Positions 35,407-52,885 of a DNA stretch of 64,000 bases are shown here, piece after piece. The notes beneath the pieces are model-generated. The model was not told where the DNA came from. It searched no databases and saw only the letters and a list, made by a program, of their open reading frames with translations. The DNA lies in contig CAIMUM010000194.1 of NCBI GenBank assembly GCA_903844685.1, positions 17,292-81,291 on the forward strand, in the 5' to 3' direction. The DNA is from an uncultured Dehalococcoidia bacterium (GTDB lineage: Bacteria > Chloroflexota > Dehalococcoidia > GIF9 > UBA5629). Made by a program: the position numbers and the translations under genes. Position 1 is the first letter of the stretch. Each line of letters opens with the position of its first letter.

Positions 35407-35745
35407 CTATAAAACTACTTTGCCGAGTTCTTTCAGGCCGGCATCCAGGCCGCGCCCGAACAACTTCAATTTAATCGGCTCACCGTTGCCATATTTTCTA
35501 TATACCTGGCAAACCTGGCAGACGCTGGTATCCCTGCCGGTGGATCCGCGGTTATCGAGCTTGCAATAAGTCCCCTCAATCTCCCAGCAGGGCAAGAACT
35601 GGTACCTGGCAGCAGGGCACTCAGCCTTTATCATTGGCGGGCAATGGCACTTGTCCCAACAAGATTCTTTGCCATACCAGAAGTTGACTTTCGCGGTATC
35701 CTCAACTCCATCAATTGTTCTCGTTTTTACTATTGTTTCTGCCAT
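35407..35745 (-). CDS. Small Cys-rich protein with two CW motifs (two-CW-like domain), co-oriented downstream of the CI-like repressor
   Basis: An AGGAGG RBS lies 8 nt before MAETIVK. Ten Cys residues sit in motifs such as SCWDKCHCPP...ECP...PCWEIEGTYC...CQVCQ. The longer track ORF upstream lacks an RBS. Confidence 0.5.
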   Translation of the reverse strand: MAETIVKTRTIDGVEDTAKVNFWYGKESCWDKCHCPPMIKAECPAARYQFLPCWEIEGTYCKLDNRGSTGRDTSVCQVCQVYRKYGNGEPIKLKLFGRGLDAGLKELGKVVL

Positions 35746-35962
35746 TGTCTTTGCCTCCTGTACTGAATTAGTCCGGCGTTTACTTTTATGCCCTAAATAT
35801 AACATCCGGCTAATTGTGCGCCATCGGCCTGAACGCTTAAATGCATTTGCGCATTTACGCACAGACGGCCGGTAACAGGTCAGCAAAAATGCTTATGTGG
35901 TACTGAATTGGAATTGGGTAGAGCGATGTATCAGGTTAAGGCACTATCTGCCTGTAGTAATG

Positions 35963-36544
35963 CTAATTCAGATGCTTAACAACCCTGACTACCTGGATGA
36001 TGAGGGCGAAGATATCCTCTTTTTTATTGTACGGGGCTATGATCATTTGTTCGCCTTCCATTTTCAGACAAAGATCCCCGGGGGACGGTTGCATATCTTT
36101 TCCGCAGATAATGATATCGCCCTTATGCACGATGTTACCGTACTCCAGATCGCTGGATTTTATGCCTATTAGTTTCATCTCTCTACCTCCATCAACAGCC
36201 AATTCCCTTGGTACAAAGGCATATTCAATTATTTGCTTGCTATCAATATCGGCATATACCGGCACAATTGCCGGCAACGATAATGATAACTCATTAATTA
36301 TTTCATAAGGCGTTTTCTTTAGCAAATCATCTTTCGGCCCTTTTTCCAAAACAAGATTGCTCATTTCATGGACAGAAACTTTTAACGCCCTGGATAACTT
36401 GCTAAGCGATGCTAAGGTTACGGATTTATAATCGCCTTTCTCGATGCGGCAAATAAACGACGGCGAGAGATCAGCCAATTTGGCTAACTCAGCTTGCGAT
36501 AAGCCCCTCTTGGAGCGAGTTTCTTTTACATAGTCACCTAACAT
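35963..36544 (-). CDS. CI/LexA-like repressor: XRE-family HTH + S24 peptidase-like C-terminal domain
   Basis: The HTH is LSQAELAKLADLSPSFICRIEKG. The C-terminal ...KSSDLEYGNIVHKGDIIIC...GEQMIIAPYNKKED resembles the S24 Ser/Lys fold. The start is either the ATG at 36544 (GGAGG 11 nt upstream) or the GTG at 36562. Confidence 0.65.
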   Translation of the reverse strand: MLGDYVKETRSKRGLSQAELAKLADLSPSFICRIEKGDYKSVTLASLSKLSRALKVSVHEMSNLVLEKGPKDDLLKKTPYEIINELSLSLPAIVPVYADIDSKQIIEYAFVPRELAVDGGREMKLIGIKSSDLEYGNIVHKGDIIICGKDMQPSPGDLCLKMEGEQMIIAPYNKKEDIFALIIQVVRVVKHLN

Positions 36545-36572
36545 ATCTTTACCATCCTCCACTAAGCTATTA

Positions 36573-38556: not shown

Positions 38557-39168
38557 ATGGATCTCTCAGTTTTCGGCATACTTTGGGCTCTAATCGAACG
38601 CGCTTGCCTTGTGCTGGTAGTATTCCTGCTGCTGTTCCATCTGAAGTTCTTTAAGCGTATGGTTGAGCAAAAATTAAATACCCTCGACCAACTGATCCTC
38701 TCAGTATTGTTCGGTTGCTTCGCACTATATGGCACGTATAGCGGGATACAAACTTCAGGAGCAATTGCTAATATCCGCAATGTCGGACCCGTTATGGGAG
38801 GCCTGCTGGGCGGCCCCCTGGTCGGCCTGGGCGCCGGGCTGATCGGCGGTATTCACCGCTATCTGATGGGCGGGTTCACAGCTCTGCCCTGCGCCATCGG
38901 AAGCATTTTGAGCGGGTTGATCGCAGGGGTGTTGTTTATTTTCTGGAAGGGGAAAATCGGCGTCTGGAAACCAACTTTATTCGCCTTTTTAATGGAAATC
39001 GCCGATATGCTGCTGCTGTTATTAATTGCCCAACCATTCGACAATGCATTAAAACTGGTTAGCATAATAGCGGCTCCGATGATACTTGCCAATACTTTCG
39101 CGATAGCGGTATTCGCTTTCCTGCTCAGAGATATGAAATCAGAGCAAACTCAAGGCAATAAAATCTAA
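38557..39168 (+). CDS. Hypothetical polytopic membrane protein (5-6 TM; ECF-S-component/5TM-receptor-like size)
   Basis: An AAGGAGG RBS precedes MDLSVFGILW. It has a Gly-rich TM core. Confidence 0.45.
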   Translation: MDLSVFGILWALIERACLVLVVFLLLFHLKFFKRMVEQKLNTLDQLILSVLFGCFALYGTYSGIQTSGAIANIRNVGPVMGGLLGGPLVGLGAGLIGGIHRYLMGGFTALPCAIGSILSGLIAGVLFIFWKGKIGVWKPTLFAFLMEIADMLLLLLIAQPFDNALKLVSIIAAPMILANTFAIAVFAFLLRDMKSEQTQGNKI

Positions 39169-39218
39169 ACAAAGCTGATTACTGGTTGCTACGGGATTGC
39201 CGTGAGAATGGCTTAAGG

Positions 39219-40526
39219 TCAGAGCAGGTACATATCTTCCGCTTCCCTGAGCAGGGAATCGCGAAAACGGGGATCGGCCAATGATATTATGTCTAATGCT
39301 CTTTCACGGGTCGATTTGCCCTTTAAATTGATCGCGCCATGCTCGGTCACCAGGTAGTGCACATCCATCCTGGGCGTAGTTATAACAGCACCGCTATCCA
39401 GCCTCGGCACTACCCTGGAGACCTGCCCTTTCCTGGCCGTTGAATAGAAGGCCAATATCGACTTCCCGCCACGGGAATTATAAGCTCCGCGTACGTAGTC
39501 GAGTTGACCGCCGGTTCCACTGTATTCAGACCCTGACAGAAACTCGGCATTGCATTGACCCAACAGGTCAACCTGAATGATGGAATTGATGGAAACCATA
39601 TTATCATTACGCGCAATAATATCCGGGTTATTGGTGTAGGAAACGGGGTAGCTCTCCATACTGGGGTTATCGTGCATGAAGCGGTACATCTCCTCTGTGC
39701 CCTCGGCCACGGTAAAAACATTTTTCATGGGATGCAGGTTCTTCCTGCGGCCGGTCACTACACCTTTCTTGATCAGTTCTACCATGGCCGGACCGAATAC
39801 CTCGGTATGTATACCCAAATCCCTGTGATTCATCAGCTTCATGGCAATAACATTGGGCAGGCCACCAAAGCCTAATTGCAGCGTCGCACCGTCGGGAACG
39901 AGATCAGCCACCAGTTTACCGATGGCGTCGTCCTCCACCCTGGCACCCGGCCACTTGAACTCGATCAGCGGTGTTGTGCTCTCAACAACTGCATGTACCT
40001 CAGAGATATGCAGGAGTGCATCCCCAAATACGCGGGGCATGTTTTTATTGACCTCCACGATAAGCCGTTTACAGCACCTGGCTACAGTGGACGTATAATC
40101 GTTGGACGTGCCGAAGCTGAAAAAACCCGCCCTGTCCATAGGCGAAACCATAGTAACGGTTACATCAATATCCAGGTTCTCTCGCATCAGCCTGGGTACC
40201 TGGTGAAAATGATTGGGCACGTAATAGTTAAGCCCCACCCTGACGGCCGAGCGCGATGCCTTGCTGACAAACCATGAAAAAGCCTGCACGCAATCGGCCA
40301 AATCCGGGGAAAGCAATGTTTTGGAAACATTCTCCATGGGCAGCAGAGAATGAACGTTCAGATTCTTGAGTGCGCCAGCCCGGACACGGTCCGCAATCGC
40401 CTTCAGCAGCGCGGGCGGCTCAGCAGCAGCCAGGCCGTGTACTAATGTGCTGCCGTTTTTAATCCCGCTTACGGCCTTTTCAGGCGAGGTAAGCTTGCGC
40501 CTATACTGTGCACGGTATGTTTGCAT
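39219..40526 (-). CDS. Acetyl-CoA hydrolase/transferase family protein (4-hydroxybutyrate CoA-transferase/Cat-like)
   Basis: Two-domain CoA-transferase family I architecture, 435 aa. Confidence 0.75.
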   Translation of the reverse strand: MQTYRAQYRRKLTSPEKAVSGIKNGSTLVHGLAAAEPPALLKAIADRVRAGALKNLNVHSLLPMENVSKTLLSPDLADCVQAFSWFVSKASRSAVRVGLNYYVPNHFHQVPRLMRENLDIDVTVTMVSPMDRAGFFSFGTSNDYTSTVARCCKRLIVEVNKNMPRVFGDALLHISEVHAVVESTTPLIEFKWPGARVEDDAIGKLVADLVPDGATLQLGFGGLPNVIAMKLMNHRDLGIHTEVFGPAMVELIKKGVVTGRRKNLHPMKNVFTVAEGTEEMYRFMHDNPSMESYPVSYTNNPDIIARNDNMVSINSIIQVDLLGQCNAEFLSGSEYSGTGGQLDYVRGAYNSRGGKSILAFYSTARKGQVSRVVPRLDSGAVITTPRMDVHYLVTEHGAINLKGKSTRERALDIISLADPRFRDSLLREAEDMYLL

Positions 40527-40528
40527 AA

Positions 40529-40867
40529 TCAGCCGGTGAAGCTATTGTTAGCCGCATCCTCGTTTTCGAAGATGTTGAATAGCTGTGTGAACCCGGCAAT
40601 ATCGAATACTTCTCTGATATTGGGCTTCATGCAGGCGAGCTTAATATCGCCTTGCTGCTTGCGCACCTTTTTCAATTGTGATAGAAAGACCCGCAGGCCG
40701 GAGCTGCTGATATACTCGAGCCCCTCCAGGTTCAACACTATTTTTACACAGCCGCTCTCGATGACAGCATCAAGTTTTTTCTCAACTTCAGCGGCACTGT
40801 ACGCATCAAGCCTACCAGTCAAACCCAGAATATTAACATCACCCGATTTCTTCCCGGTTAAATCCAA
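40529..40867 (-). CDS. STAS-domain protein (anti-sigma-factor antagonist, SpoIIAA-like)
   Basis: 112 aa STAS fold with the conserved Ser in ...YISSSGLRVF.... Confidence 0.7.
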   Translation of the reverse strand: MDLTGKKSGDVNILGLTGRLDAYSAAEVEKKLDAVIESGCVKIVLNLEGLEYISSSGLRVFLSQLKKVRKQQGDIKLACMKPNIREVFDIAGFTQLFNIFENEDAANNSFTG

Positions 40868-40982
40868 TGTGGTCTCCTTTATATCTCCAAATTTCTACAG
40901 CATATCATCATGCATCGATTTTAACATTTATATAGTTTAGCCACGTTAACTTAACATATTTTTAGGAAACCCGTTAAGGCAC

Positions 40983-42437
40983 CTATACTCCTTCCACGCT
41001 GGAAAGCACGTTGTCAAACCTTTTCAGAGCATCATCAATCACAGCATCCGTATCAGCCATGCTGGTATACATGCGCGAGCCTGCCAGTGTAATCAGACCA
41101 TTTGCCATAAAGGCCGCACCCATTTCTTCCATCATGTGCTTACGTGGTTTGACCTCATTCAATAGCCGCTCGATATTATTGAAATCCAGAAATGTTACTC
41201 CGGAAGTTTCCAGATGAACGATTGAGCCCTGGTTATAAACCACAAACGGCAGCTTAAGGCGTTCAATTGTATTTTGCAAGCCTTTTGTAAGTCTGTCGCC
41301 TGCCTTTCCTGCAATTACAGGGGCGTTGGTGCGCTCCATTTCAAGCAACGCGTAGTAACCGGCAACGCAGGAGAGTGGGTTGGCCGAAAGCGTCCCGCCT
41401 ACGTAGGCGCGTTCGCCCGTTCCCTCGACGCCGGCAGCAAAACATTGGATTATCTCGGCCCGGCCACCCACACCACCTGCCATTGGGTAGCCTCCGGTGA
41501 TACACTTGCCAAAAATCGTCAGGTCGGGTTTTACGCCGAAATAGCCCTGTGCCCCACCCATTCCCAGCCTGAAACCTGTCACGACTTCATCGAAGATGAG
41601 CAGTGCGCCAAACTCATCGCATAGTTTGCGGACCTTACTATTAAAATCAAAAGGTACCGGGCGAGTGCCGCTTTCAGGCCCGACCGGCTCCACGATGACG
41701 GCTGCCGTTCCGCCGATACGGCGGTTGGCTACCAGTCTGCGTTTCAGCGCCTCCAGGTCATTCGGGTAGAACTCCTGTGTATTGGAGGTCGCACCATTCG
41801 GGATGCCGACGGCTTCCATTCGTCCTGTGCCGGGGATATGCATCCCATAAACCATTGAATCGCTCCAGCCGTGGTAGGCGCCACCAACCTTGATGATCTT
41901 CTTCTTTTTGGTAAATACTCGCGCGCCCCGGATGGCCGCCATCACGCTCTCGGTCCCGGAGCCCAGCATGCGGAACATCTCAACAGCCGGCATGAAACGG
42001 TTAATCAGTTGCGCCAGTTTAAGTTCGTATTCATGGAATAGGCCGGTGACAGGTCCGCAGGAATTCAGCATTTCCACGACCTTTTCACGTACCGGTGCAT
42101 AATTGTTGCCCAGCATGATCGGCGCGCCGGCCTGTAAAAAATCAATGTATCTATTATTATCCACGTCCCAGAGGTAAGCTCCTTCGGCTTTCCCGATGGC
42201 AATCGGGAACGGGTAGTTGAAGGCCAGGTTATGCTGGACGCCGCCCGGGATATACTTCTTGGCTTCGTCGGTCAACGCCCGGGACTGCGTACATTTTGTA
42301 TCGAAATAAGCAAGATATTCCTTCATCTTTTCCGATCGCACCCGTCGCATCGGCTGGCTGACAAGAGCGTCCAGCCGCCGGTAAACTAGGTCAACGTCGG
42401 GATACTGAGAAATTGCATATTTCTGCGTATCACTCAT
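40983..42437 (-). CDS. Class III (PLP) aminotransferase / aminomutase family protein
   Basis: AT-III motifs are present (FDEVVTGFRLG, GKCITGGYPM). The start was set at MSDTQ behind GGAGGT. Confidence 0.8.
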   Translation of the reverse strand: MSDTQKYAISQYPDVDLVYRRLDALVSQPMRRVRSEKMKEYLAYFDTKCTQSRALTDEAKKYIPGGVQHNLAFNYPFPIAIGKAEGAYLWDVDNNRYIDFLQAGAPIMLGNNYAPVREKVVEMLNSCGPVTGLFHEYELKLAQLINRFMPAVEMFRMLGSGTESVMAAIRGARVFTKKKKIIKVGGAYHGWSDSMVYGMHIPGTGRMEAVGIPNGATSNTQEFYPNDLEALKRRLVANRRIGGTAAVIVEPVGPESGTRPVPFDFNSKVRKLCDEFGALLIFDEVVTGFRLGMGGAQGYFGVKPDLTIFGKCITGGYPMAGGVGGRAEIIQCFAAGVEGTGERAYVGGTLSANPLSCVAGYYALLEMERTNAPVIAGKAGDRLTKGLQNTIERLKLPFVVYNQGSIVHLETSGVTFLDFNNIERLLNEVKPRKHMMEEMGAAFMANGLITLAGSRMYTSMADTDAVIDDALKRFDNVLSSVEGV

Positions 42438-42599
42438 ATAAACCTCCACTAATAAATATCAATTGTACCAGCTTTCACCTTTCGTTTATATCCCTCGTCT
42501 GATCCCGCATTGCCGCACCGGACCATCTTCATCCGGCGCGGCAATTTCTATCAGGACCAGGTTAACAGCATCCTGCCGATTGTTCATCCAGCATATAAA

Positions 42600-43913
42600 T
42601 TATGCTTCTTTCTTGAACGTCTTGAATGGATCGGCCCATTGTTTGACCGAAGCTGCAAGTTCTTTATGTGTCTTGGAGTATTCCTCAAGAGAAATACCCT
42701 TGAGCGTGGCGTCTATCGCCTGTCTGAAGGCCTTCCCTCCTGCTACAGGACCCAGTGGGTGAGCATGAATTCCCCCACCCGAGCCAATTACGATATCATT
42801 CCCCAGCTCCTGCATCACTTTGGGTACATGTGTCGGGGTAATACCACCGGATGCCATTGGCCACGTCGGTTTAAGCTGATATAAAGGATACGTTAGATTT
42901 CTGGCCATAGAATCGAACTTCTCGACAATGACCGAGGCCTTCCCGTAAGGAGCGGGAATAACGACTATGTCGGCGCCGGCCAGTCTTGCCAGTTTACCAA
43001 GTACCAGGTGAGAGCTCATACCGTGTTGAGGCGACATATACAGCGCCCCTGCCACATCCATATGTCCCAGAATGGGGACGCCTATTTTCGGGTCCTCTGC
43101 AAGCGCCTGCAAGACCGGAATCCCAACTGCAATATAATTGACCATGATAGCGTTGGCACCCAATTCTACCGCACGCCTGGCATTTTCGAATATTTTCGGC
43201 ACCGAATCGGTGACATTGACCGTGTAGAGTGTACGCTCTCCTGTCTCCTCAAAGACCTGCTTTTCAATTTCCATGTATCGCTTAACACGGCCTTTGATCG
43301 AGTTAAAGGAAGCATCCGCGATCAGTTCGTCATCCTTAACTATGTCGCAACCACCCAACGCGGCAAGCTTGAACAACTCGGCCCCCACCTCAAGTGGATA
43401 TCCTGTACATGGTTTAACCATGTTGTTCAATAACGGCCTCTTCTTAACTCCCAGGAGTTTCCTGATCCCATCAATTCCGAACTTGGGACCCTGGAACCCG
43501 GCGACGTATTTCTTAGGAAATCTTATGTCAACCAGTTTTATCGGGCCTGCCATGGATATATTGCCCACAACGGTGGTTAGCATCATAGGTATTTGCGATC
43601 CAACATTCACCAAGGGAAAGGCCATTTGCACGAACCAATTTCTGTCCTTAACGTCGGAAGGAATACTATACTCGTAATCAGGCATCTCATAACAGCCAAT
43701 TACCTTCGCCACATGGCGCCTGCGCACTTCCGGGGTCTCACCAGGAACTGGCACCCAGGTCCCTGTGCTTTGCTCAATGGCCAGCATCGGCGCCAGCTTG
43801 GGCATGGGAAACATGGCCGGATACGTGACAATGTAGGTACCGATGATGTAATCATCGTAGTCAATCCCATCTGGCAATGCTACAGGTTGGCTTAACATCT
43901 CATCATTCGTCAT
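42600..43913 (-). CDS. RuBisCO large-subunit-like protein (form IV RLP)
   Basis: GGCDIVKDDE matches the RuBisCO GG(L)DFTKDDE motif, so the carbamylated Lys and the Asp/Glu are kept. VLGKLARLAG, PMASGGI..THVP and GSGGGIHAHP match RuBisCO C-terminal motifs. KPKLG has become KPCTG. The RBS is AGGAGG. Confidence 0.8.
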   Translation of the reverse strand: MTNDEMLSQPVALPDGIDYDDYIIGTYIVTYPAMFPMPKLAPMLAIEQSTGTWVPVPGETPEVRRRHVAKVIGCYEMPDYEYSIPSDVKDRNWFVQMAFPLVNVGSQIPMMLTTVVGNISMAGPIKLVDIRFPKKYVAGFQGPKFGIDGIRKLLGVKKRPLLNNMVKPCTGYPLEVGAELFKLAALGGCDIVKDDELIADASFNSIKGRVKRYMEIEKQVFEETGERTLYTVNVTDSVPKIFENARRAVELGANAIMVNYIAVGIPVLQALAEDPKIGVPILGHMDVAGALYMSPQHGMSSHLVLGKLARLAGADIVVIPAPYGKASVIVEKFDSMARNLTYPLYQLKPTWPMASGGITPTHVPKVMQELGNDIVIGSGGGIHAHPLGPVAGGKAFRQAIDATLKGISLEEYSKTHKELAASVKQWADPFKTFKKEA

Positions 43914-44219
43914 TTATGTTCCTCCTATTTTATACTTGAGCTTAATCACACGTTAATTTGTTTGGCCTTGCGCAACATCGCTACAGACCCACCTACACTT
44001 CAACATATAAGCGATCAACGTAACCCTGGCAACCGGACATAGAAATGGCAAAAGCTTCATTTTCTCGAAATCCGTACTGTAAAGTTCCCGCTATTACCAC
44101 GAGATTACCTCTGGCAACAAGGTTTTGCGCAGTCTCAACGATTGGCCATCTATCAGGGCCAAATTGCCCCATACTTCACTTCCAAGTTTCAACTTTACAA
44201 TGTCAGGATTATAAATCGC

Positions 44220-44252
44220 AATCTTGACGCTGTCAAGATTAGACAGTAATAT
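44220..44252 (+). promoter_or_regulatory. TetR operator palindrome (AATCTTGAC-GCT-GTCAAGATT) overlapping -35 of a TTGACG-17-TAATAT promoter; near-leaderless TetR
   Basis: A perfect 9+9 inverted repeat lies at 44220-44240. The -35 is at 44224-44229 and the -10 at 44247-44252, 6 nt from the TetR ATG (44259). No SD is present. Confidence 0.55.
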
Positions 44253-44258
44253 TATCTC

Positions 44259-44933
44259 ATGCCTGTCAAAAAATATCATCACGGTGACCTAAAGAACGCA
44301 CTAATTAAGGCAGGGATTGAAATCCTCTCCAAAGAGGGCGTTCATGGCCTTAGCCTGCGTAAAGTGGCACAAAAAGCAGGCGTCAGTCACACGGCACCCT
44401 ACTCACACTTTGCCGACAAGCAGTCGCTTATAGCCGCCATCTCGATAGAAGGCTTCCGGACAATATATGAGCTGTTGGATGGCGTAATTCAGCGTTATCA
44501 GGGCAAACCTCTCAGGCAATTGGTGGAAGGCGCCTGGGCGTACGTTCAATTCGCACTCAGTGACCCGGCACATTTCAAGGTGACCTTATCCAGCGTACTG
44601 GAGAGGGAGAAAGACTATCCCGCGTTCGTTGAGATGTCTCACAAAGGCTTTGGGACGGTCGTCGGGATAGTCGAGACGTGCCAGGCAGCAGGTGTGCTAC
44701 GCCCCGGGCCAGCAGATGTGGAAGCCATAAGTGTTTGGAGCACTGTCCACGGGTTTGTATCTCTTCTTCTGGAAGGACAAATCTATCATTCGATTCTGGA
44801 GCGCTATACGGTGCGTGAATTGCTGATTTCTTGCCTGGCACATGTTACCCTGGTCGAACTGACTCCTGAAAGCTATTCGGAAATGGAGCCCTCCGGGATA
44901 TATATTTACCCTGCCATAAGTACACCAGCCTAA
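44259..44933 (+). CDS. TetR/AcrR-family transcriptional regulator
   Basis: The N-terminal TetR HTH is LSLRKVAQKAGVSHTAPYSHF. Confidence 0.85.
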   Translation: MPVKKYHHGDLKNALIKAGIEILSKEGVHGLSLRKVAQKAGVSHTAPYSHFADKQSLIAAISIEGFRTIYELLDGVIQRYQGKPLRQLVEGAWAYVQFALSDPAHFKVTLSSVLEREKDYPAFVEMSHKGFGTVVGIVETCQAAGVLRPGPADVEAISVWSTVHGFVSLLLEGQIYHSILERYTVRELLISCLAHVTLVELTPESYSEMEPSGIYIYPAISTPA

Positions 44934-44994
44934 GACGCATCACGTAATCAGGGATGTAACGAATGGTTGGCAACCTGGCCGAATCAGGATATCG

Positions 44995-46530
44995 CTATAT
45001 CTGACTACACCTCGCTTTATTTATCCTCTCGTAAAATCCCTTCAAATCAGGATACAACTCCTTATAGGAACGGTAAAGGAAATCATAAACCTCGCGGTTC
45101 TTGGCCTGAGGTTTAAAAGTATATGCGACGCCAACCACTTTTTTCAACGACTCAAAATCCTTGTATATACCAAGCCCCACTGCTGCTGCCATTGCCACTC
45201 CCACCGCCCCTGCCTCCTGGGCATTACGCACCGGTTCTATTATCTTGCCCGTAACATCGGCGATAATTTGCATCCAGGGATGGCCCAGAGCTCCGCCTCC
45301 AATTACCCTGAGCGAGGGTAAAGGAAATTTATATTCCTTTTCCACCCTTTCGATTATCCAGCGGATATTATAGGCCACACCCTCATATACGGCGCGCAGC
45401 AGGTGTTCGCGTGTATGCTCAGGTGTGAGATTCAAGAACCCGGACCGTATATAGCTATCCGCTACCGGCGATCTCTCTCCGTACATCCATGGCATAAATA
45501 TAAGGTAGTCAGAGCCCGCAGGCACTTCCATTACCTTGCCGTCCATATAACCATATATATTGGCAATAGTGGCATCGGCGTTCTCGGTCCTGCATACCTG
45601 TTCGCCCAACCATTTAAGGCAACCGCCGGCCGTTTCCATCTGTGCCAGGAGCAGGGCTTTGTCCGGATCAGCCGACTGAATGGCGGCGATACCATTTTTT
45701 CCGGTCGGGGTCTTCCGCGTAACAACCCCAACCCAGGCCGACGTCCCCATACTTATGTGGCCATCTCCCTCTCCCACCGCACCTGAACCAACGGCGGCAG
45801 AGGCCGTATCTCCGGCTCCACCCATCACAGGCGTGCCCTCAAGCAGTCCAAACTGTTCCGCAGCCTCTTTCGTCAGGCTACCAATTTTGTCAATAGAGCG
45901 TGTTAGCGGCGGCAATTTCGATGTGTCAAATCCGACGTACGCGAAAACAGCTTTCAGCCATTCCTTTTTCTTTAAGTCCAGGCCGAAACCCGAGGCATTG
46001 TTCCAGTCCATGGACATACTTCCGGTGCAACGGTATTTCAGGAAACCGTTTAGATCCAGAAAGAATTTCATTTTTCCATAGGTTTCCGGCTCGTTTTTTT
46101 TGAGCCAGAGCAGTTTGGGCATCGCATCCTTCCCGTTAATCTCTGCTCCCGCTATGGCAGCAAACACCGAAGGGCCCAGAAACTTGTTCATCATAAATTT
46201 GGCCTCTTCAGCCGCGCGGTTATCCATCCATATTATTCCCTGCCTTAAAGCCACCCCTTTTTCATCCATCGGCACAATGCCAAGCATCTGGGTGGAAAAC
46301 GTGAGGCATAAAATGTCCGCAGGCGACACTCCGGTTTCTGACAGAAGTTGCTTTGTGGTACTGGTGACGGCGCTCCACCAATCTTCAGGGTCTTGCTCCG
46401 CCCACCCTGGCCTGGGATATTTAATATCGTATGGATGAAGTACCTTGCCGTGGACTTCCCCCCCCACACCCACTAGAACCGCCTTGTTGTTAGTGGTCCC
46501 CACATCATGAGCAATTATGTATTTCGCCAT
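44995..46530 (-). CDS. FGGY-family carbohydrate kinase (xylulokinase/glycerol-kinase-like)
   Basis: The FGGY N- and C-terminal domains are present (HDVGTTNNKAVLV, GGGALGHPWMQIIADV). Confidence 0.8.
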   Translation of the reverse strand: MAKYIIAHDVGTTNNKAVLVGVGGEVHGKVLHPYDIKYPRPGWAEQDPEDWWSAVTSTTKQLLSETGVSPADILCLTFSTQMLGIVPMDEKGVALRQGIIWMDNRAAEEAKFMMNKFLGPSVFAAIAGAEINGKDAMPKLLWLKKNEPETYGKMKFFLDLNGFLKYRCTGSMSMDWNNASGFGLDLKKKEWLKAVFAYVGFDTSKLPPLTRSIDKIGSLTKEAAEQFGLLEGTPVMGGAGDTASAAVGSGAVGEGDGHISMGTSAWVGVVTRKTPTGKNGIAAIQSADPDKALLLAQMETAGGCLKWLGEQVCRTENADATIANIYGYMDGKVMEVPAGSDYLIFMPWMYGERSPVADSYIRSGFLNLTPEHTREHLLRAVYEGVAYNIRWIIERVEKEYKFPLPSLRVIGGGALGHPWMQIIADVTGKIIEPVRNAQEAGAVGVAMAAAVGLGIYKDFESLKKVVGVAYTFKPQAKNREVYDFLYRSYKELYPDLKGFYERINKARCSQI

Positions 46531-46700
46531 ATGACTACCCCCCTTTAAATCGCGTTAATATATGATATCACCGTTGTAAATTGTGCATTATCATACATAA
46601 CATCCCGTATTGAATCAATACCCACAATGCTATACATATATAGTATTTTGACGATAGCCTCGATTCACCCCTATACTTCCAGGTAAAATTGGGGTCAGGC

Positions 46701-47681
46701 ATGACAGAGCGCACATATATCACGTTATATAAATCCGGAGAATTAGCAGCAAGAGCTGTCGCACTCCAGGAGCAGCTATATGACTGTGATATCTGTCCGC
46801 GCGCATGCCACGTAAACAGGTTTGAGAATATGCGGGGATTTTGCGGGTCAGGACAACTTATCTCGGTCTCAAGCTACTGTGATCATCACGGAGAAGAACC
46901 TGCCCTATCGGGAACAAGAGGTTCCGGGACAATATTTTTCCATAACTGCAACCTGCGGTGCAAATACTGCCAGAATCACCAGATAAGCCAGGGTACTGAT
47001 AACCGGTCACAGACTTTAAGCAGCAAAGAACTGGCAGCAATAATGCTTCATTTACAGAATGATTTACGCTGCCACAACATTAACCTCGTATCACCCTCGC
47101 ATTATGTGCCGCAAATAGTGGAAGCCCTGTGCCACGCCATTCCCGGAGGACTGCATATACCTTTAATATATAATACCAATGGTTATGATTCCCTGGATAC
47201 CCTGAAAATGCTGGACGGGGTCATAGATATTTACCTGCCTGACCTTAAGTACGCTGATAACCGGTATGCGGATGAATTTTCTCATTGCAGCAATTACGTG
47301 GAATCAAGCAGGCCTGCGATAAAGGAAATGTACCGGCAGGCCGGCAATCTTGTCAGCGACGAATCCGGTATCGCACAAAGTGGACTGATTGTGCGTCATT
47401 TAATCCTGCCAAACGATATTGCAGGCAGCGCTGACTCCCTGCGCTGGTTGGCAAGGGATATCTCAAAGGATGTAACGGTCAGCGTTATGGCCCAGTATTA
47501 TCCCTGCTTTCTCGCCTGGCAGGAACCAATGCTTTCCAGGAAAATCACGTCTGCAGAATACGCCCGGGTCGTGGAAATACTGCAGTCACTGCATTTAGAC
47601 AATGGCTGGTTGCAGGAAATAGATTCATCCGAATTCTACCTGCCTGACTTCCAGCGTCAAGGACACCCGTTCTCACAGTAG
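46701..47681 (+). CDS. Radical SAM protein, AmmeMemoRadiSam-system / PflA-like activase type
   Basis: An N-terminal CDICPRAC (CxxCPxxC) precedes the radical SAM CNLRCKYCQNHQIS motif. A TTG at 46689 is an alternative start. Confidence 0.65.
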   Translation: MTERTYITLYKSGELAARAVALQEQLYDCDICPRACHVNRFENMRGFCGSGQLISVSSYCDHHGEEPALSGTRGSGTIFFHNCNLRCKYCQNHQISQGTDNRSQTLSSKELAAIMLHLQNDLRCHNINLVSPSHYVPQIVEALCHAIPGGLHIPLIYNTNGYDSLDTLKMLDGVIDIYLPDLKYADNRYADEFSHCSNYVESSRPAIKEMYRQAGNLVSDESGIAQSGLIVRHLILPNDIAGSADSLRWLARDISKDVTVSVMAQYYPCFLAWQEPMLSRKITSAEYARVVEILQSLHLDNGWLQEIDSSEFYLPDFQRQGHPFSQ

Positions 47682-47696: not shown

Positions 47697-48401
47697 TTAC
47701 AACCTATCTTTCAGGTCGCGTCTAAAAAGACCTCTTATAAAGTTATGGCCTGATTTGGCCCAAATTTCCTTTATCCTTGGTATATACATCAAGACGGGCA
47801 CAGCAGTAAGAAAAATGGCGTATATAAACAAACCTGTATCTTTGTATACAAACCAGGCAATAAGCCAAAATGCGATAAAAGATATGGCATATGCCGCAGT
47901 TGGCCAGCGGGTAACCAATGTCAGAATAAGGAATGATCCAAGGAATATCAAATCGCCCAGAGGAATGGGCAGTTTAATGGACCCCATATCCACCCAGTTT
48001 ATCCACGCAAGCAGAAAGGCCAGAACACCGATAGCAGTGGCGCCGCCTTTTCCGCCTTTGAAATTGAGGAACACCGGGAAATTATGTCCGGCGATAACTG
48101 CTATTCCCGCAGCCATTTCAACAGGAACTACCATGTTGCCTGCAACCACAAATAAATATGTTGCTATCAGATATGATAGCAGTACGGCCAGGATACCTTT
48201 ACATACATCTGACGCTAATACCAGCATACCCGGCCAGAAACCTATGGTATAAAAGGTATTCATAGCCCCCATATTGTGACTGCCGACTTTCCTGATATCA
48301 ATCCCTTTGAAGGCCCGCCCAACCAGGTAGGCCGAGGGGATGGAACCTATCAGGTAACTAACGACCATTGATGTCATGAATGCTAATACTGTATTTATCA
48401 T
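47697..48401 (-). CDS. plsY: Glycerol-3-phosphate acyltransferase PlsY
   Basis: PlsY motifs GSHNMGAMN and HNFPVFLNFKGGKGGAT are present in a polytopic membrane protein. Confidence 0.85.
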   Translation of the reverse strand: MINTVLAFMTSMVVSYLIGSIPSAYLVGRAFKGIDIRKVGSHNMGAMNTFYTIGFWPGMLVLASDVCKGILAVLLSYLIATYLFVVAGNMVVPVEMAAGIAVIAGHNFPVFLNFKGGKGGATAIGVLAFLLAWINWVDMGSIKLPIPLGDLIFLGSFLILTLVTRWPTAAYAISFIAFWLIAWFVYKDTGLFIYAIFLTAVPVLMYIPRIKEIWAKSGHNFIRGLFRRDLKDRL

Positions 48402-48473: not shown

Positions 48474-48944
48474 TCAAAAACTCAGGAACTGGTTTCTGGC
48501 GATCAGCGCCACCTGTCCACGCTGATTAGTATAGGTCGTTTCCACGGTAGTAACCATGGTGGGCCCCATCCTGGTTTCCTTGCCCTCGATATTGGCAATC
48601 TTGATAACGGCGACCAGCATATCACCGGCGCCGATGGGCGCCTTGAACTCATATTCAACGCTCCCGTCCAGGTTCCCCCGCGGCGCGCCGGCGGCAATGA
48701 GTTTCTCTACAAATTGAAACATATCAAAACCGCTGGTAACAGGCCAACCAATAAAGGAGGGCGGCGCTTTAAGCCTGCCAAATTCGCTCTGCGCTGCGAA
48801 TTCCACATCGTTATGCGTGGGGTTGGTGTCACCGACAGCCCGGGCGAATCGTTGGATAGCGCCTTCTTCAATCTTATAAAGCAAAGGCGGCTCAGCGGTC
48901 CCAATAAGTTTTTTTAATCCGTCTGTCAATACGAACACTGCCAT
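48474..48944 (-). CDS. MaoC-N-terminal-like hotdog protein (FAS1-DH-N/ChsH1-like hydratase subunit)
   Basis: Hotdog fold. It is a paralog of 49562..50032. The RBS is GGAGG. Confidence 0.65.
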   Translation of the reverse strand: MAVFVLTDGLKKLIGTAEPPLLYKIEEGAIQRFARAVGDTNPTHNDVEFAAQSEFGRLKAPPSFIGWPVTSGFDMFQFVEKLIAAGAPRGNLDGSVEYEFKAPIGAGDMLVAVIKIANIEGKETRMGPTMVTTVETTYTNQRGQVALIARNQFLSF

Positions 48945-49062
48945 TTCAGGTTTCCTCCATTTCAGGTTGTCAGGTAAGCCGTCAACAAAATATCGCTGGT
49001 TGGCATGTACGTCTCATACTCAACCAGCGATACCGGGTTACAACACTATTTTTTATTAATGA

Positions 49063-49530
49063 TTATTTGGCCCTGGATGGTAAAGCCGTGAGCGCACTGC
49101 CGGTGGTAGTTTTCTCTCCCTTCCCATTCTCCACCCAGATCTCGCACTCCACGAGCGATTCTTCACTCTCCACATATTTCTTAGTGACCTTGCCCTTGCA
49201 CAACCAGGTCTCGCCATCATGCGGGTCATCAAAGGTTTTCATCTTGCGCGGGTAATCCATACCACGATAGCGGCATGATAATTTCTTTAACCCGCCTTTT
49301 TCACCTATCCAGTCCGTCATCAGGTTAACCAGCCACGCCCTCTTCAGCAGGCCGTGGACGATCGGTTTGCCCACGCCCAGGCTTTTAGCGAAATCCTCTT
49401 CATAGTGCAACGGGTTGAAATCACCTGACGCGCCTGCATATTGCACCAGCATCCTGGTAGTGGCTATTTTTTTTAGTGGCGTGATCTCACTGCCAACTTC
49501 GACATCTTCGTAATAAAGCTGTTTAGCCAT
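49063..49530 (-). CDS. MaoC-like (R)-specific enoyl-CoA hydratase hotdog protein
   Basis: MaoC dehydratase motif ...GDFNPLHYEEDFA.... The RBS is GGGAGG. Confidence 0.7.
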   Translation of the reverse strand: MAKQLYYEDVEVGSEITPLKKIATTRMLVQYAGASGDFNPLHYEEDFAKSLGVGKPIVHGLLKRAWLVNLMTDWIGEKGGLKKLSCRYRGMDYPRKMKTFDDPHDGETWLCKGKVTKKYVESEESLVECEIWVENGKGEKTTTGSALTALPSRAK

Positions 49531-49561
49531 TGTTCCTCCCGCAAAATAATAAGTTGCCCGG

Positions 49562-50032
49562 TTAGAAATTAAGGAAGGTATTACGCGTAATCAGCGCAAC
49601 TGCTCCCCTTTGATTTGTGAACGTGCTCTCAATGGTCGTGACCATGGTAGGCCCCATCTTGGTTTCACGTCCTTCAATTCCCGCAATCTTTATCTCCATT
49701 ACCAGTATGTCTCCATCGCCTATGGGCGCAAGGAAATCATACTCAACTCCACCGTCGAGCAGTCCCATCGGGGCTCCGGCTTTAGCAAGCCTCTCGAAAA
49801 GCTTGAACATATCGAATCCGCTTGCTATTGGCCAACCGGTGAATCCCGGCGGGGCCATTACGCGGCCCCACTTGCTCTGCGCGGCATATTCAACGTCATT
49901 GAACAGCGGGTTGGAATCTCCCACTGCGCGGGCGTAACGCTGAATTGCCCCTTCCTCGATTTTCATTACAACCGGTTTTTCTTTTTGACCGATCAATTGC
50001 TTTAAACTATCTGTCACAACAAACGCAGCCAT
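49562..50032 (-). CDS. MaoC-N-terminal-like hotdog protein (ChsH1-like hydratase subunit)
   Basis: Paralog of 48474..48944 (…EGAIQRYARAVGDSNPLFNDVEYA…). Confidence 0.65.
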   Translation of the reverse strand: MAAFVVTDSLKQLIGQKEKPVVMKIEEGAIQRYARAVGDSNPLFNDVEYAAQSKWGRVMAPPGFTGWPIASGFDMFKLFERLAKAGAPMGLLDGGVEYDFLAPIGDGDILVMEIKIAGIEGRETKMGPTMVTTIESTFTNQRGAVALITRNTFLNF

Positions 50033-50051
50033 TTATTTCCGTCCTGATATC

Positions 50052-51245
50052 TTACTTGCCCACGATGCATACGCTTACAACGCACATAGAGGGGAAGCCA
50101 CCCATATTATGCGTAAGTCCAACCTTCGGGTCCTTGAGTTGCCTTTTATCAGCTTTGCCCTGCAGCTGTTTATACATTTCATACATCATGCGCAGGCCGC
50201 TGGCGCCGATCGGATGTCCAAAGCATTTCAAGCCGCCGTCGATTTGTATAGGCTGAGCACCGTCATAATTGAACCGCCCTGCATCTATATCGTCCTTTAC
50301 CTTGCCTCGGGCGCTGAACTGCAGGTCTTCCATGGTAACAGCTTCAGTAATGGAGAAGCAGTCATGTACTTCAGCCATGCTGACTTCCTCACGGGGGTTC
50401 TTGATACCGGCCTCTTTATAAGCCATAATACCGGCGCGGTATGAGGGCTCTACATGAGCGCCATCCCACTTGGTATAAAGCATCTCTTCACCCGAGGATA
50501 CTGAAATCTGAATAGACTTGACAAACACGGGGTCCGGCCTGAATTTTTTGACCATATCCGCCCCGCAGACTATGGCTGCGGCTGACCCGTCACTGACCCC
50601 ACAACAGTCAAAAAGCCCGAGCGGCCAGGCTATTACCGGAGCATTCATTACCTGTTCAACGGTAACCTCTTTGCGAAGGTGGGCTTTAGGATTCAGTGCG
50701 CCATTCCTGTGACTCTTGGCTGAAATCTTAGCCAGCATCATTTTTCCATCCTGGGGGTTAAGGTTGTATTTTGAGAAATACTTGGTGGCCATCATGGCGA
50801 ATCCGCCGGGAGCGGTTAAATTGAAAGAATTCAACGGCATTTTATATCCCATGCCGCCCGCCAGGGGCAACCCGCCATAACCGGTATCCTTCAATTTCTC
50901 CATGCCCAATGCCAGGCAGATATCATATGCTCCTGAAGCAACCCCGTACACTGCGCCACGCAGGGCTTCAGAACCGGTGGCACAGAAATTCTCCACCCTG
51001 GTTATGGGGATAAAAGGCAACTTTAATGTGGTCCCGAGGATTGTAGCGCCACGGCCGACACTGATATCGGGCATGTGGACGCCCCACCATGCTGCCTGGA
51101 TATCTTTTTTCTCCAACCCGGAATCCGCCAGGCACTCGACGAAAGCTTCCACCATGAGGTCTTGCGGACTCGCATCAAACCGTTCCCCGAACTTGGTGCA
51201 GCCCATCCCGATTATAGCTACTTTATCTTTAATACCTTCTGCCAT
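50052..51245 (-). CDS. SCP-x-type (nonspecific lipid-transfer-protein-like) 3-ketoacyl-CoA thiolase with intact catalytic residues
   Basis: The Cys nucleophile is in ENFCATGS. The His is in CFGHPIGASG. A C-terminal Cys is present. The RBS is AGGAGG. Confidence 0.8.
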   Translation of the reverse strand: MAEGIKDKVAIIGMGCTKFGERFDASPQDLMVEAFVECLADSGLEKKDIQAAWWGVHMPDISVGRGATILGTTLKLPFIPITRVENFCATGSEALRGAVYGVASGAYDICLALGMEKLKDTGYGGLPLAGGMGYKMPLNSFNLTAPGGFAMMATKYFSKYNLNPQDGKMMLAKISAKSHRNGALNPKAHLRKEVTVEQVMNAPVIAWPLGLFDCCGVSDGSAAAIVCGADMVKKFRPDPVFVKSIQISVSSGEEMLYTKWDGAHVEPSYRAGIMAYKEAGIKNPREEVSMAEVHDCFSITEAVTMEDLQFSARGKVKDDIDAGRFNYDGAQPIQIDGGLKCFGHPIGASGLRMMYEMYKQLQGKADKRQLKDPKVGLTHNMGGFPSMCVVSVCIVGK

Positions 51246-51279
51246 TTTAATTTCCTCCTTGCGTTATCCTTAATTACGA

Positions 51280-52722
51280 TCAGGCAACTATGGGCATGGC
51301 TTTCCAGCCGTAGTTAATAGCAGCGCGTTTTTCATCTGCGGCCTTAATCCTGAAAGCTAATTCGACCGGCATACCAACCTTTATAGTATTCGGATCACAG
51401 TCTGTGAAATCCAACCCGGCGCGTCCGCCACCCTTAAAATCGATAAAGCCGTACGATGCGGGCGGGTCGATGCTTGGAGCCAGGAAGTCGCTGGTATAGG
51501 TAAAGATATCACCCAGCTTATCAGAGAACTTGTAAGCCTCCATCTGGTCAACGGCTCCGCAGTCCGGGTTCGGGCATATCCTCTGGACCGGCCAGCTCGG
51601 CGTACCGCACTTCTTGCACTTGGTTCCAACCATGCCGTAGATCTCCCGGCTCTCGCGCGAAATGATGGAAAATGATGTAAATATCGTTTCCTCGCCGCGT
51701 ATTCCGATTTCGCAAGGCATGAGTTTGCGGAACGCGAGGTATTTTTCATAGCTGCCCAGGGCTACTTTATTGGCGAGATTACGCTTGATTGCTTTCTTAT
51801 CCTTTATCATGGCTATTTTATCGGTAACGGTAAGATACATGGCGTCGCACCCCTGTCCAAAGCTGATGACCATAATCTTGTCACCGGGTTTAGCATCTTC
51901 TAATGCGGCCACCAGCATCATCAAAGTCTGCGCTACACCCGTATCGCCAACCGTTGTGAGCATGGGTTCCTGCACCTGTTCCGGCGCCAGTCCCAGAGTC
52001 TTACCAAGGGCTGCATGCGCCCCTGTAAAAGCACAGGCGTAGATGACCTTACTGAAATCCTTGGCAGTTAAATTATATTTCTTAACCAACCCCGCTGCCG
52101 CCTCCGGTATAAACTTCATGTATCCGGCGTCCCTTATAAAGCGTTCCTCCCACATATGCTCGAGGCGCTCACCCTCAAGACGGCGCCGGTCAACAAAATC
52201 ATGAGTAGTGCAGTACGAGCCATCGATAGTAGCAACCACATCATCCTTCCCCAACAAAAAGGCAGCTCCACCATCACCATAGGTATAATCGCCATTGCTG
52301 CCAACCTTGCTCACGCGGCAATCAGCTGCCGATATCAGGCAATTATTCAAAGAACCCGATGAAACCGCATCCGCCGCCGCCAGTAGTGCTGCAGTACCGG
52401 ATTTGGTGGAATCTGTGAAATCGGCTGTCCTGCAATTAGTGTTAAGATCTAATGCAGCAGCTATGATACCCGCATTTTGCCTCAAGGAATATGTCTGAGA
52501 AGTTGTAGCGAAGTAGCATCCATCTACCTTGCCTGAGTCTTCACCCCTAAGACAGTCCTTGGCTGCCGCTACCGCCATTGTAATACTATCCTCGTCCCAG
52601 TTAGCGACCGCCTTTTCACCCCTCAATGGCGCAAAGCCCAAAAATAATAACGCCATCTGCATAATATTGCGATCCAACCGGAACCTGGGGATGTGCGCTC
52701 CATACGACTTGATACCTACCAT
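51280..52722 (-). CDS. HMG-CoA-synthase-like condensing enzyme fused to a C-terminal DUF35 (Zn ribbon + OB fold) domain
   Basis: The N-terminal ~340 aa resemble archaeal-type HMGCS (MVGIKSYGAHIPRFRL..., GCYFATTS active-site Cys region). The C-terminal CKKCGTPSWPVQRICPNPDCG Zn ribbon plus OB fold matches the stand-alone DUF35 genes. The RBS is AGGAGG. Confidence 0.65.
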   Translation of the reverse strand: MVGIKSYGAHIPRFRLDRNIMQMALLFLGFAPLRGEKAVANWDEDSITMAVAAAKDCLRGEDSGKVDGCYFATTSQTYSLRQNAGIIAAALDLNTNCRTADFTDSTKSGTAALLAAADAVSSGSLNNCLISAADCRVSKVGSNGDYTYGDGGAAFLLGKDDVVATIDGSYCTTHDFVDRRRLEGERLEHMWEERFIRDAGYMKFIPEAAAGLVKKYNLTAKDFSKVIYACAFTGAHAALGKTLGLAPEQVQEPMLTTVGDTGVAQTLMMLVAALEDAKPGDKIMVISFGQGCDAMYLTVTDKIAMIKDKKAIKRNLANKVALGSYEKYLAFRKLMPCEIGIRGEETIFTSFSIISRESREIYGMVGTKCKKCGTPSWPVQRICPNPDCGAVDQMEAYKFSDKLGDIFTYTSDFLAPSIDPPASYGFIDFKGGGRAGLDFTDCDPNTIKVGMPVELAFRIKAADEKRAAINYGWKAMPIVA

Positions 52723-52885
52723 TTTTCCTCCTTAAATCTGATTATTATTTATAATCTTGACCAACCCATTAGCCTGTGATTTTACACCATATGCCATTCA
52801 ATCTCAACAGCATTTGTGTATATTTGATTAATTAAATACCGCTGCTATTTAGTGAGCCTGATTTCAATTCTTATTGGCTATCCAA

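Follow-up and report, generated by a model that had tools for sequence, protein, structure and literature searches.

The 64,000-nucleotide stretch of DNA analyzed here (the window; positions 17,292 to 81,291 of contig CAIMUM010000194.1, from an uncultured Dehalococcoidia bacterium) carries on its minus strand, at 42600-43913, the gene of a 437-aa RuBisCO-like protein (RLP). We propose, with a probability that we put at roughly 60%, that the gene cluster around it encodes an unassigned small-molecule pathway built on a clade of RLPs sister to the MtnW/YkrW enolases, the chemistry being what we infer for it. Judged from its sequences, this clade is an RLP family that stands apart by its active-site signature and by its conserved set of partners, among them an FGGY carbohydrate kinase. 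Genes were assigned by combining the list of open reading frames (ORFs) with Pfam and NCBIfam scans of the window, and all the ORFs named in an earlier reading of the same DNA (the original prediction) were found in place, with strong family matches. The closest genome record, a Chloroflexota/Dehalococcoidia metagenome-assembled genome (L001; loci are numbered in this way throughout), has an identical gene order and an RLP 99% identical to that of the window.

Known RLP functions are a handful, namely those of enolase, isomerase, apiose decarboxylase and transcarboxylase, and hamamelose oxygenase (PMC10176493), and according to reviews and genome papers the range of these functions is still open (PMC7325909). 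Uncharacterized RLP clades were to be expected; the present one is abundant, mis-annotated and unusually RuBisCO-like. Databases name its relatives inconsistently, the JGI label being 'DK-MTP-1-P enolase' (for 2,3-diketo-5-methylthiopentyl-1-phosphate) and that of some NCBI records 'ribulose 1,5-bisphosphate carboxylase'. Such automatic names, methionine-salvage enolase or RuBisCO, mislead metabolic reconstructions, including claims of sulfur salvage and of CO2 fixation. Full-text searches, whose coverage leaves out several key RLP reviews so that an earlier naming is possible, found no literature on RLPs with FGGY/xylulokinase or on this clade, and the RLP papers listed from 2019 onward did not yield any.

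Active site and phylogenetic position of the RLP

The RLP matches both RuBisCO large-subunit domains (PF00016 with 165.1 bits, cut-off 30.1; PF02788 with 33.5 bits, cut-off 20.7) and has the metal center of the superfamily, with the carbamate lysine K193 and the Asp/Glu ligands D195 and E196, which places it in the RuBisCO large-subunit superfamily; its sequence leaves no doubt about the fold. It falls short of the more specific models compared: those of MtnW (NF007095, 373.9 bits against a cut-off of 409; TIGR03332, 336.8 against 513.6), to which other clade members score 322-382, those of RuBisCO itself (TIGR03326, 254.3 against 497.45; NF003252, 243.8 against 438; NF010002, 123.6 against 489) and that of OiaX (NF042437, 194.1 against 700). 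Among the solved relatives, the YkrW/MtnW enolases come first with 283-287 bits, followed by a Photo-type RLP (218), form III RuBisCO (215) and the RLP of R. rubrum (102.1 to 3qfw); the comparison with the DeepYkr group consists of similarity to 3qfw and not of a clade-specific model. Scores and residues together rule out membership of the RLP in the MtnW, OiaX and RuBisCO families. The original prediction had classed the protein as a form IV RLP with an altered KPKLG loop, which the models and the active-site map bear out, and had seen no fit to described RLP pathways, which holds for MtnW and OiaX by model score and for the R. rubrum isomerase by similarity to its solved structure. Among the motifs it had listed, GGCDIVKDDE, GKL, GGGIHAHP and KPCTG are present, but the one written SGGI..H.P is actually SGGITPTHVP, in which three residues and not two precede the histidine.

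The active site was mapped by aligning the RLP to 2oek of G. kaustophilus and to 70 homologues, including ten form III RuBisCOs, and the column mapping is validated by the fact that all ten carry every canonical residue. Fifteen of the 20 RuBisCO active-site residues, the loop-6 lysine included, are retained. They comprise (RuBisCO/RLP numbering) Glu60/E47, Thr65/T52, Trp66/W53, Asn123/N118, Lys175/K167, His294/H284 and Lys334/K325, those of the metal center (Lys201/K193, Asp203/D195 and Glu204/E196), and Ser379/S355, Gly380/G356, Gly381/G357, Gly403/G379 and Gly404/G380. The first phosphate site, which we take to be RuBisCO's C1-phosphate site, is kept. The other five are replaced, Thr173 by Met (M165), Lys177 by Cys (C169; invariant in the clade apart from the clostridial branch described below), Arg295 by Met (M285), His298 by Ala (A288) and His327 by Val (V318), and the second-phosphate site, formed by Arg295, His298 and His327, is lost. 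The RLP therefore has one phosphate site, a carbamate-Mg center and a loop-6 Lys/Glu60 pair, without a site for a second phosphate.

The closest characterized relatives, the MtnW/YkrW DK-MTP-1-P enolases of B. subtilis (2zvi) and G. kaustophilus (2oek), share with the RLP the fold, the carbamate lysine, the Asp/Glu metal ligands, Lys175, His294 and a glycine-rich single phosphate site. These two MtnW enzymes have Gly at RuBisCO position 60, Lys at 123 and Ser at 334, whereas the RLP keeps Glu60 and Lys334 and has G380 in place of Ala. Its N118 aligns with K98 of 2oek; at this position Asn is universal in the clade, and Lys in the YkrW-signature clusters. In the MtnW of G. kaustophilus, Lys98 is said to have been identified by Imker et al. 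in 2007 as the catalytic general base. With form III RuBisCO the likeness extends to Glu60, Asn123 and Lys334, and it is the replacement of Arg295, His298, His327 and Lys177, with scores under the cut-offs, that sets the RLP apart. Because this active site is nearer to that of RuBisCO than those of the compared MtnW enolases are, the function of the clade would bear on how carboxylation chemistry arose or was lost.

The phylogenetic placement suggested along with the original prediction was carried out, and in a neighbor-joining tree with a form III root and limited reference sampling the RLP clade is sister to the MtnW/YkrW enzymes. Its signature, E-T-W-N-M-K-C-K-D-E-H-M-A-V-K-S-G-G-G-G, is nearly the same in Dehalococcoidia, Anaerolineae, Actinomycetota, Caldisericota, Desulfatitalea and the Asgard Hod-/Heimdallarchaeota; the only deviants, at one to three positions each, are L021, L027, L069 and the Clostridia L065/L066. 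When 1.84 billion cluster representatives were searched exhaustively, 2142 proved to belong to the RuBisCO superfamily. Among the 92 full-length representatives at 50% identity, the exact signature occurs in a single one, P0121, the cluster of the window RLP itself, and the MtnW-type clusters make up a separate group with a uniform signature. Several sister clusters, at 43-49% identity, keep Glu60, Asn123, Cys177 and Lys334 and are variable at 295, 298 and 327. The clade is abundant in Chloroflexota of peat, lake sediment and the subsurface, and extends into Asgard archaea.

The FGGY kinase and the other gene partners

For the neighborhood survey, the proteins of the window were mapped onto 79 species-level genome loci, neighboring ORFs were clustered, and the survey was repeated with profile searches. 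The counts refer to 102 clade loci, 67 from genomes (neighbors within 6 kb of the RLP gene) and 35 from metagenomes (neighbors within three genes). An FGGY gene lies within these distances in 74 of the 102, in several phyla. Among the 67 genome loci it is found in 50, a saccharopine-dehydrogenase-like gene in 19, a class III aminotransferase in 14, TetR in 11, STAS and an MFS transporter in six each and a CoA-transferase in five. This survey, also proposed earlier as a check, identifies the FGGY kinase as the conserved partner of the RLP, and such adjacency strongly backs the idea of the original prediction that the kinase plus the RLP may define an unassigned route. The partners named in its title fared worse as a conserved set: STAS and the CoA-transferase each occur in 8/102 loci, and the third gene is the aminotransferase in some loci and the saccharopine-dehydrogenase-like gene in others, never both.

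In the window, the gene of the 511-aa XylB-like kinase occupies 44995-46530 on the minus strand. FGGY precedes the RLP in the same orientation in 42 of the 56 genome loci that have at least 1.7 kb of DNA on that side, and in 21 of the 25 metagenome loci that extend upstream it is no more than three genes away. The gap between the two genes is below 200 nt in 34 of those 42 loci (median about 31 nt), most relatives abutting at 16-66 nt; in six of the 42 it amounts to about 1.05-1.1 kb and corresponds to an intervening TetR gene, as in the window. Most likely, a TetR gene entered an ancestral FGGY-RLP operon. The identity of the kinase to that of the window co-varies with RLP identity (r = 0.96, n = 45) and that of the aminotransferase tracks it too (r = 0.96), figures which fit inheritance as a unit and are inflated in part by shared genome ancestry. 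The kinase has both FGGY domains (PF00370 and PF02782) and stays below the cut-offs of TIGR01312 (XylB; 335.7 bits against 380.25) and NF011601 (203.5 against 912), its best solved relatives being 3ifr and E. coli XylB 2itm; it thus belongs to the FGGY family with its specificity unassigned. MFS transporters, present in 9/102 clade loci, suggest uptake of an external substrate.

The aminotransferase (40983-42449, minus strand) is a class III pyridoxal-phosphate enzyme (PF00202) resembling glutamate-1-semialdehyde (GSA) aminomutase. Its probable start is the ATG at 42437, behind a GGAGG ribosome-binding site, giving 484 aa as in its relatives. Its scores to the HemL models lie below their cut-offs (TIGR00713, 275.6 bits against 527.3; NF000818, 294.3 against 398), and its solved relatives are GSA aminomutases, D-phenylglycine aminotransferase and beta-transaminases. 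This gene is linked to the RLP in 26/102 loci (14 genome and 12 metagenome) and the saccharopine-dehydrogenase-like gene in 19 genome and 11 metagenome loci; in neither set were the two found in the same locus. As a rule the dehydrogenase-like gene begins 5-58 nt past the RLP, and its product (PF03435/PF16653) has carboxyspermidine and saccharopine dehydrogenases as nearest solved structures, enzymes whose targets are CH-NH bonds made from an amine and a carbonyl. In our reading the two genes would serve the same amine/carbonyl step in alternative ways. The trio of FGGY, aminotransferase and RLP also recurs with its genes in other orders, in Desulfatitalea (L052, L053) and Actinomycetota (L064), and on the metagenome contigs L095, L096, L132, L142, L145, L151 and L154. 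Other conserved neighbors in the dehydrogenase subclade (clusters c30, c31, c42 and others) were set aside as, by sequence, unrelated housekeeping or toxin-antitoxin genes.

Downstream of the aminotransferase, the window carries on the minus strand a 112-aa single-domain STAS protein (40529-40867, PF01740) and a CoA-transferase of the acetyl-CoA hydrolase/transferase family, 4-hydroxybutyrate type (39219-40526, PF02550 and PF13336; 465 bits to the 4-hydroxybutyrate CoA-transferase 4n8h), which starts 2 nt after the STAS stop. The two genes occur together in the window, L001-L003, L020, L111 and L112; L111 has the order FGGY-RLP-aminotransferase-STAS-CoA-transferase without TetR, L117 has the aminotransferase and the CoA-transferase without STAS, and in L017 the contig ends after RLP, aminotransferase and STAS. 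STAS directly follows the RLP in L020, L021 and L112. In L004 and L005, whose RLPs are 95% identical to that of the window, a second, distant FGGY replaces both genes. STAS and the CoA-transferase are therefore accessory genes, limited to a few lineages. The STAS protein scores 89.2 bits to TIGR00377 (cut-off 53.45) and 68 to the SpoIIAA equivalog (cut-off 114.75), and neither a kinase nor a sigma-factor gene was recognized in the ORFs annotated nearby.

Some loci depart from these arrangements. The complete 2.46-Mb Chloroflexota chromosome OY970123.1 has two FGGY-RLP pairs (L014 and L043), one in the order MarR-FGGY-RLP-disulfide oxidoreductase (RLP 85% identical to that of the window) and the other in the order MFS-FGGY-RLP-aminotransferase (94%); two pairs in one genome suggest two substrates or two regulatory regimes. 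On the 21.6-kb contig DAOTVU010000021.1, an FGGY-RLP-dehydrogenase block occurs twice in inverted orientation (L022/L023), which may reflect a genuine duplication with inversion or a palindrome made in assembly. L007 and L048, with TetR and no kinase, have an HpcH/HpaI-type aldolase and a Glu/Leu/Phe/Val dehydrogenase upstream of TetR, the latter being a third kind of amine/carbonyl enzyme near an RLP. The Clostridia/Eubacteriaceae members L065/L066, which branch deeply within the clade (46-50% identity, Asn at position 177), have TetR beside an MFS-RLP-HAD-IB phosphatase series, at 8.7-12.1 kb of these loci, with no adjacent kinase, and the MtnX-like phosphatase scores 92 bits against a cut-off of 292. 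The Hod-/Heimdallarchaeota members L055-L059 have the exact signature without FGGY nearby; their neighbors are a ThiS-like protein, an acyl-CoA synthetase, an aldehyde:ferredoxin oxidoreductase and an ECF-type membrane component.

Sister RLP families, at about 380-475 bits to the window RLP, each have a sugar or polyol context of their own: a SorC regulator with a PEP_hydrolase-like protein and UPF0261 (L085, L090), GlpA/GlpB-like dehydrogenases with DUF1667, a PHP domain and a Cof-type phosphatase (L086, L087), two FGGY kinases with a short-chain dehydrogenase and a xylose-isomerase-like barrel (L148), and a GlpP antiterminator with FGGY (L110). Overall, the partners of these families are FGGY, HAD phosphatases, GlpA-like FAD dehydrogenases, a short-chain dehydrogenase, a xylose-isomerase-like barrel and GlpP/SorC regulators.

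Proposed pathway and alternative explanations

In the pathway that we propose, the XylB-like FGGY kinase would make a keto-sugar or keto-polyol monophosphate, which the RLP would bind through its single phosphate site and enolize in the manner of RuBisCO, the carbamate-Mg center removing the proton instead of the lysine used by MtnW. The outcome would most likely be an isomerization or a tautomerization, by analogy with the R. rubrum RLP and with the steps after EryA. The aminotransferase would either make the carbonyl substrate from an amine before the kinase or aminate the product after the RLP, and a transcript shared by the RLP and aminotransferase genes is plausible. TetR would repress until a pathway metabolite binds it. 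STAS and the CoA-transferase would be lineage-specific additions, the latter perhaps activating an acid end product for the flanking beta-oxidation-type genes. The defined three-enzyme set (kinase, RLP, and aminotransferase or dehydrogenase) and the putative repressor-operator pair make the function directly testable.

Each of the known systems resembles this scheme in part. The R. rubrum RLP (DeepYkr), a 5-methylthio-D-ribulose-1-phosphate 1,3-isomerase, isomerizes a keto-sugar monophosphate between ketose-1-phosphate and xylulose-5-phosphate-type skeletons (PMC6302742). It is the working analogy for the proposed isomerization, although only 102 bits relate the RLP to 3qfw. In R. rubrum the pathway partners are a cupin methylsulfurylase and methylthioadenosine-salvage genes, none of which was identified among the annotated ORFs here. 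As for OiaX/OiaT of D-apiose catabolism, the RLP would be fed by a dedicated kinase in a sugar catabolic operon, but the partner kinase in the window is FGGY and not of the DUF1537 family, to which Carter et al. reportedly assigned the kinase partner of OiaX in 2018. Unlike MtnW, which has MtnK, MtnA, MtnB, MtnX and MtnD as partners, the RLP has FGGY and the aminotransferase. The erythritol route of Brucella proceeds through the FGGY kinase EryA and then keto-phosphate isomerases, with EryB, EryC, EryH and EryI in the set (PMC11508834). The same kinase-then-isomerase logic would apply here, and GlpA-like dehydrogenases, xylose-isomerase-like barrels and FGGY are found at sister RLP loci; but no Ery orthologue was identified, the isomerase would be the RLP, and the set has an amine-handling enzyme.

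Several observations speak against the proposed pathway. No FGGY gene is near the RLP in Asgard archaea, in Clostridia and in the kinase-less subclade that has TetR. In the window the kinase lies outside the RLP transcription unit, a search allowing up to three mismatches found no TetR operator before it, and the RLP unit itself is interrupted by spacers of 150 nt (RLP-aminotransferase) and 115 nt (aminotransferase-STAS) and by a strong hairpin. XylB-type kinases usually phosphorylate C5, which is not adjacent to the carbonyl, and the RLP site matches that for the C1 phosphate of RuBisCO. The STAS protein has no explained role in the scheme, and shared ancestry enters the identity correlations. 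Finally, Lys334, Glu60 and His294 are kept, residues which in RuBisCO serve, along with Asn123, in CO2 addition, hydration and cleavage.

This last point would also fit C-C bond chemistry by the RLP on a monophosphorylated keto substrate, in the form of a decarboxylation, a carboxylation or the hydrolytic cleavage of a diketone or beta-keto compound (compare OiaX and OiaT), with a carboxylic acid or aldehyde as product that is later activated to a CoA ester. We regard this as unlikely, though as the main rival: the MtnW enolases lack Lys334, Glu60 and Asn123, a CoA-transferase is present in the cluster of the window and in L020, L111, L112 and L117, the Asgard members adjoin an acyl-CoA synthetase and an aldehyde:ferredoxin oxidoreductase, and beta-oxidation-type genes flank the window locus. 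The CoA-transferase is, however, restricted to 8/102 loci, no carboxylate-handling gene is conserved universally, the OiaX model gives 194 bits against a cut-off of 700, and Lys177 is replaced by Cys. That the clade as such may add or remove CO2 or cleave a C-C bond on a kinase-made keto-sugar monophosphate is a bolder idea, to which we attach a low probability and which is suggested by the Glu60/Lys334/Asn123/His294 machinery being kept while the substrate would have one phosphate. If true, the superfamily would gain a reaction type new to it, present in anaerobic Dehalococcoidia and in Asgard archaea, and the clade would be a living intermediate between form III RuBisCO and MtnW-type RLPs. 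A true ribulose-1,5-bisphosphate carboxylase would account for the 15/20 residues kept and for the NCBI label on some relatives, but the chance of this is close to nil: Lys177, Arg295, His298 and His327 are replaced, the RuBisCO models stay under their cut-offs (254 vs 497, 244 vs 438, 124 vs 489), and among the annotated ORFs close to the RLP neither a phosphoribulokinase nor an AMP-pathway gene was found.

It is also rather improbable that the RLP is an MtnW-like enolase in an oxygen-independent variant of methylthioribose/5-deoxyribose salvage, with FGGY in the place of MtnK and the aminotransferase making the final amino acid. The MtnW models are its top-scoring ones, JGI labels relatives as DK-MTP-1-P enolase, an MtnX-like HAD-IB phosphatase follows the RLP in the clostridial members, kinase, RLP, phosphatase and aminotransferase parallel four salvage steps, and a radical SAM gene, as a source of 5'-deoxyadenosine, is nearby. 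Yet both MtnW scores remain under their cut-offs (409 and 513.6), as does that of the MtnX-like protein (92 vs 292), the Lys98 position is Asn in every clade member and Lys in every YkrW-signature cluster, and the radical SAM linkage is seen in Dehalococcoidia-type loci. No homologue of mtnA, mtnB, mtnK or mtnD was identified among the annotated ORFs around the RLP, in the window or in the scanned loci, nor was any of mtnK, mtnA, mtnB, mtnX and mtnD among those annotated at 32-54 kb of the window. Little credence is due, too, to a mosaic in which aminotransferase, STAS and CoA-transferase would make up a separate omega-amino-acid/hydroxy-acid module merely adjoining the RLP. The long spacers and the hairpin, and the second FGGY found in L004 and L005 instead of STAS and CoA-transferase, would suit it, and a class III aminotransferase with a 4-hydroxybutyrate-type CoA-transferase recalls 4-aminobutyrate fermentation. 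Against it, the aminotransferase stands beside FGGY and RLP in other phyla without a CoA-transferase (the ten Desulfatitalea, Actinomycetota and metagenome loci named above), STAS directly follows the RLP in three loci, and aminotransferase and dehydrogenase-like gene exclude each other at the same position.

Control region and flanking genes

The 224-aa TetR-family repressor (44259-44933, plus strand) matches PF00440 with 39.4 bits and, in its C-terminal domain, PF13305 (TetR_C_33) with 48.8 bits. Its gene is divergent from that of the RLP, as had been described, with the correction that FGGY and TetR are convergent. At 44220-44240 stands a perfect 9+3+9 palindrome of 21 bp, AATCTTGAC-GCT-GTCAAGATT, already noticed in the original prediction; it is real, and it is conserved across the TetR-bearing loci as a putative operator, O1. 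Its consensus, (A/T)ATCTTGACA(A/G)CGTCAAGATT, stands 18 nt before the TetR ATG in 7/9 TetR-bearing genome loci, the other two having over-extended TetR ORF calls. In a spacer alignment of the window, L004-L007 and L051, it is also seen in L006 with one change. A mismatch search found, about 30 bp from O1, an imperfect copy with three mismatches (O2, 44191-44209), also a putative operator, in a block conserved in the TetR-RLP spacer alignment. The window holds three O1-like sites with up to three mismatches, vs 0.15 expected by chance.

The RLP operon has a predicted sigma-70-type promoter on the minus strand at 44208-44236 (TTGACA-17 nt-TATAAT, 12/12 matches), both hexamers of which are kept in relatives. 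O1 overlaps its -35 box and the TetR promoter, and O2 overlaps its -10 box. A divergent repressor gene and putative operators on both promoter boxes, the palindrome on the -35 and the imperfect copy on the -10, give the region the layout of TetR-type repressors with paired operators over divergent promoters. A TetR promoter-like site at 44224-44259 ends 6 nt before the TetR ATG, and the TetR transcript may be leaderless.

From this promoter to the RLP start, the leader measures about 295 nt (43914-44207, minus strand); some 250 nt of it, poorly conserved, are absent from L051 and L007, where the promoter lies about 45 nt from the RLP start. A riboswitch or other known RNA was rejected, in the leader or elsewhere in 36-50 kb, with no Rfam match at E <= 1 and a leader folding z of -0.6 vs shuffled sequences. 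So was a leader peptide, the 59-codon ORF at 43993-44172 being frameshifted or truncated in close relatives; the start of this decaying ORF coincides with the RLP start position of L051. Between RLP and aminotransferase lies a G+C-rich hairpin with a 14-bp stem (42509-42545, minus strand), kept in close relatives and, in L004, through two compensatory changes on both arms. With no U-tract after it, an intrinsic terminator was discarded, and the hairpin may be a transcript-stabilizing or processing element.

The radical SAM gene (46689-47681, plus strand, from the ORF list) had been taken for an AmmeMemoRadiSam type, an identity that does not hold, TIGR04337 matching residues 27-113 with 21.5 bits, far from its cut-off of 220. 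Neither AMMECR1 nor Memo was recognized in the annotated ORFs next to the gene, and no solved relative of its product was found. The gene recurs with PlsY (47697-48401 in the window, minus strand, from the ORF list) and MaoC genes in Dehalococcoidia-type loci, and by gene order it is only a syntenic neighbor, outside the RLP system. The same conserved synteny in Dehalococcoidia applies to a rhodanese and to a 5TM-LytS-type membrane protein (PF07694; 38494/38557-39168, plus strand), from the ORF list and Pfam, of which 38557, the left edge of the piece described earlier without mention of this gene, is the likely start. Further on, 48474-53989 holds three MaoC-like hydratases, an SCP-x-type thiolase, a DUF35/HMG-CoA-synthase-like gene and an acyl-CoA dehydrogenase. 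These genes, named for the most part from their ORF translations, make up a beta-oxidation-type cluster syntenic with the RLP locus in Dehalococcoidia. On the other side, an integrase-core (rve_3) transposase fragment at 34123-34377, in a region of lower G+C (0.45 at 34-36 kb), is an insertion-sequence remnant beside an acyl-CoA dehydrogenase gene. A cysteine-rich ORF of 159 aa (35407-35886, minus strand), with no Pfam match, is kept in 10 related loci beside an XRE-type regulator (35963-36562).

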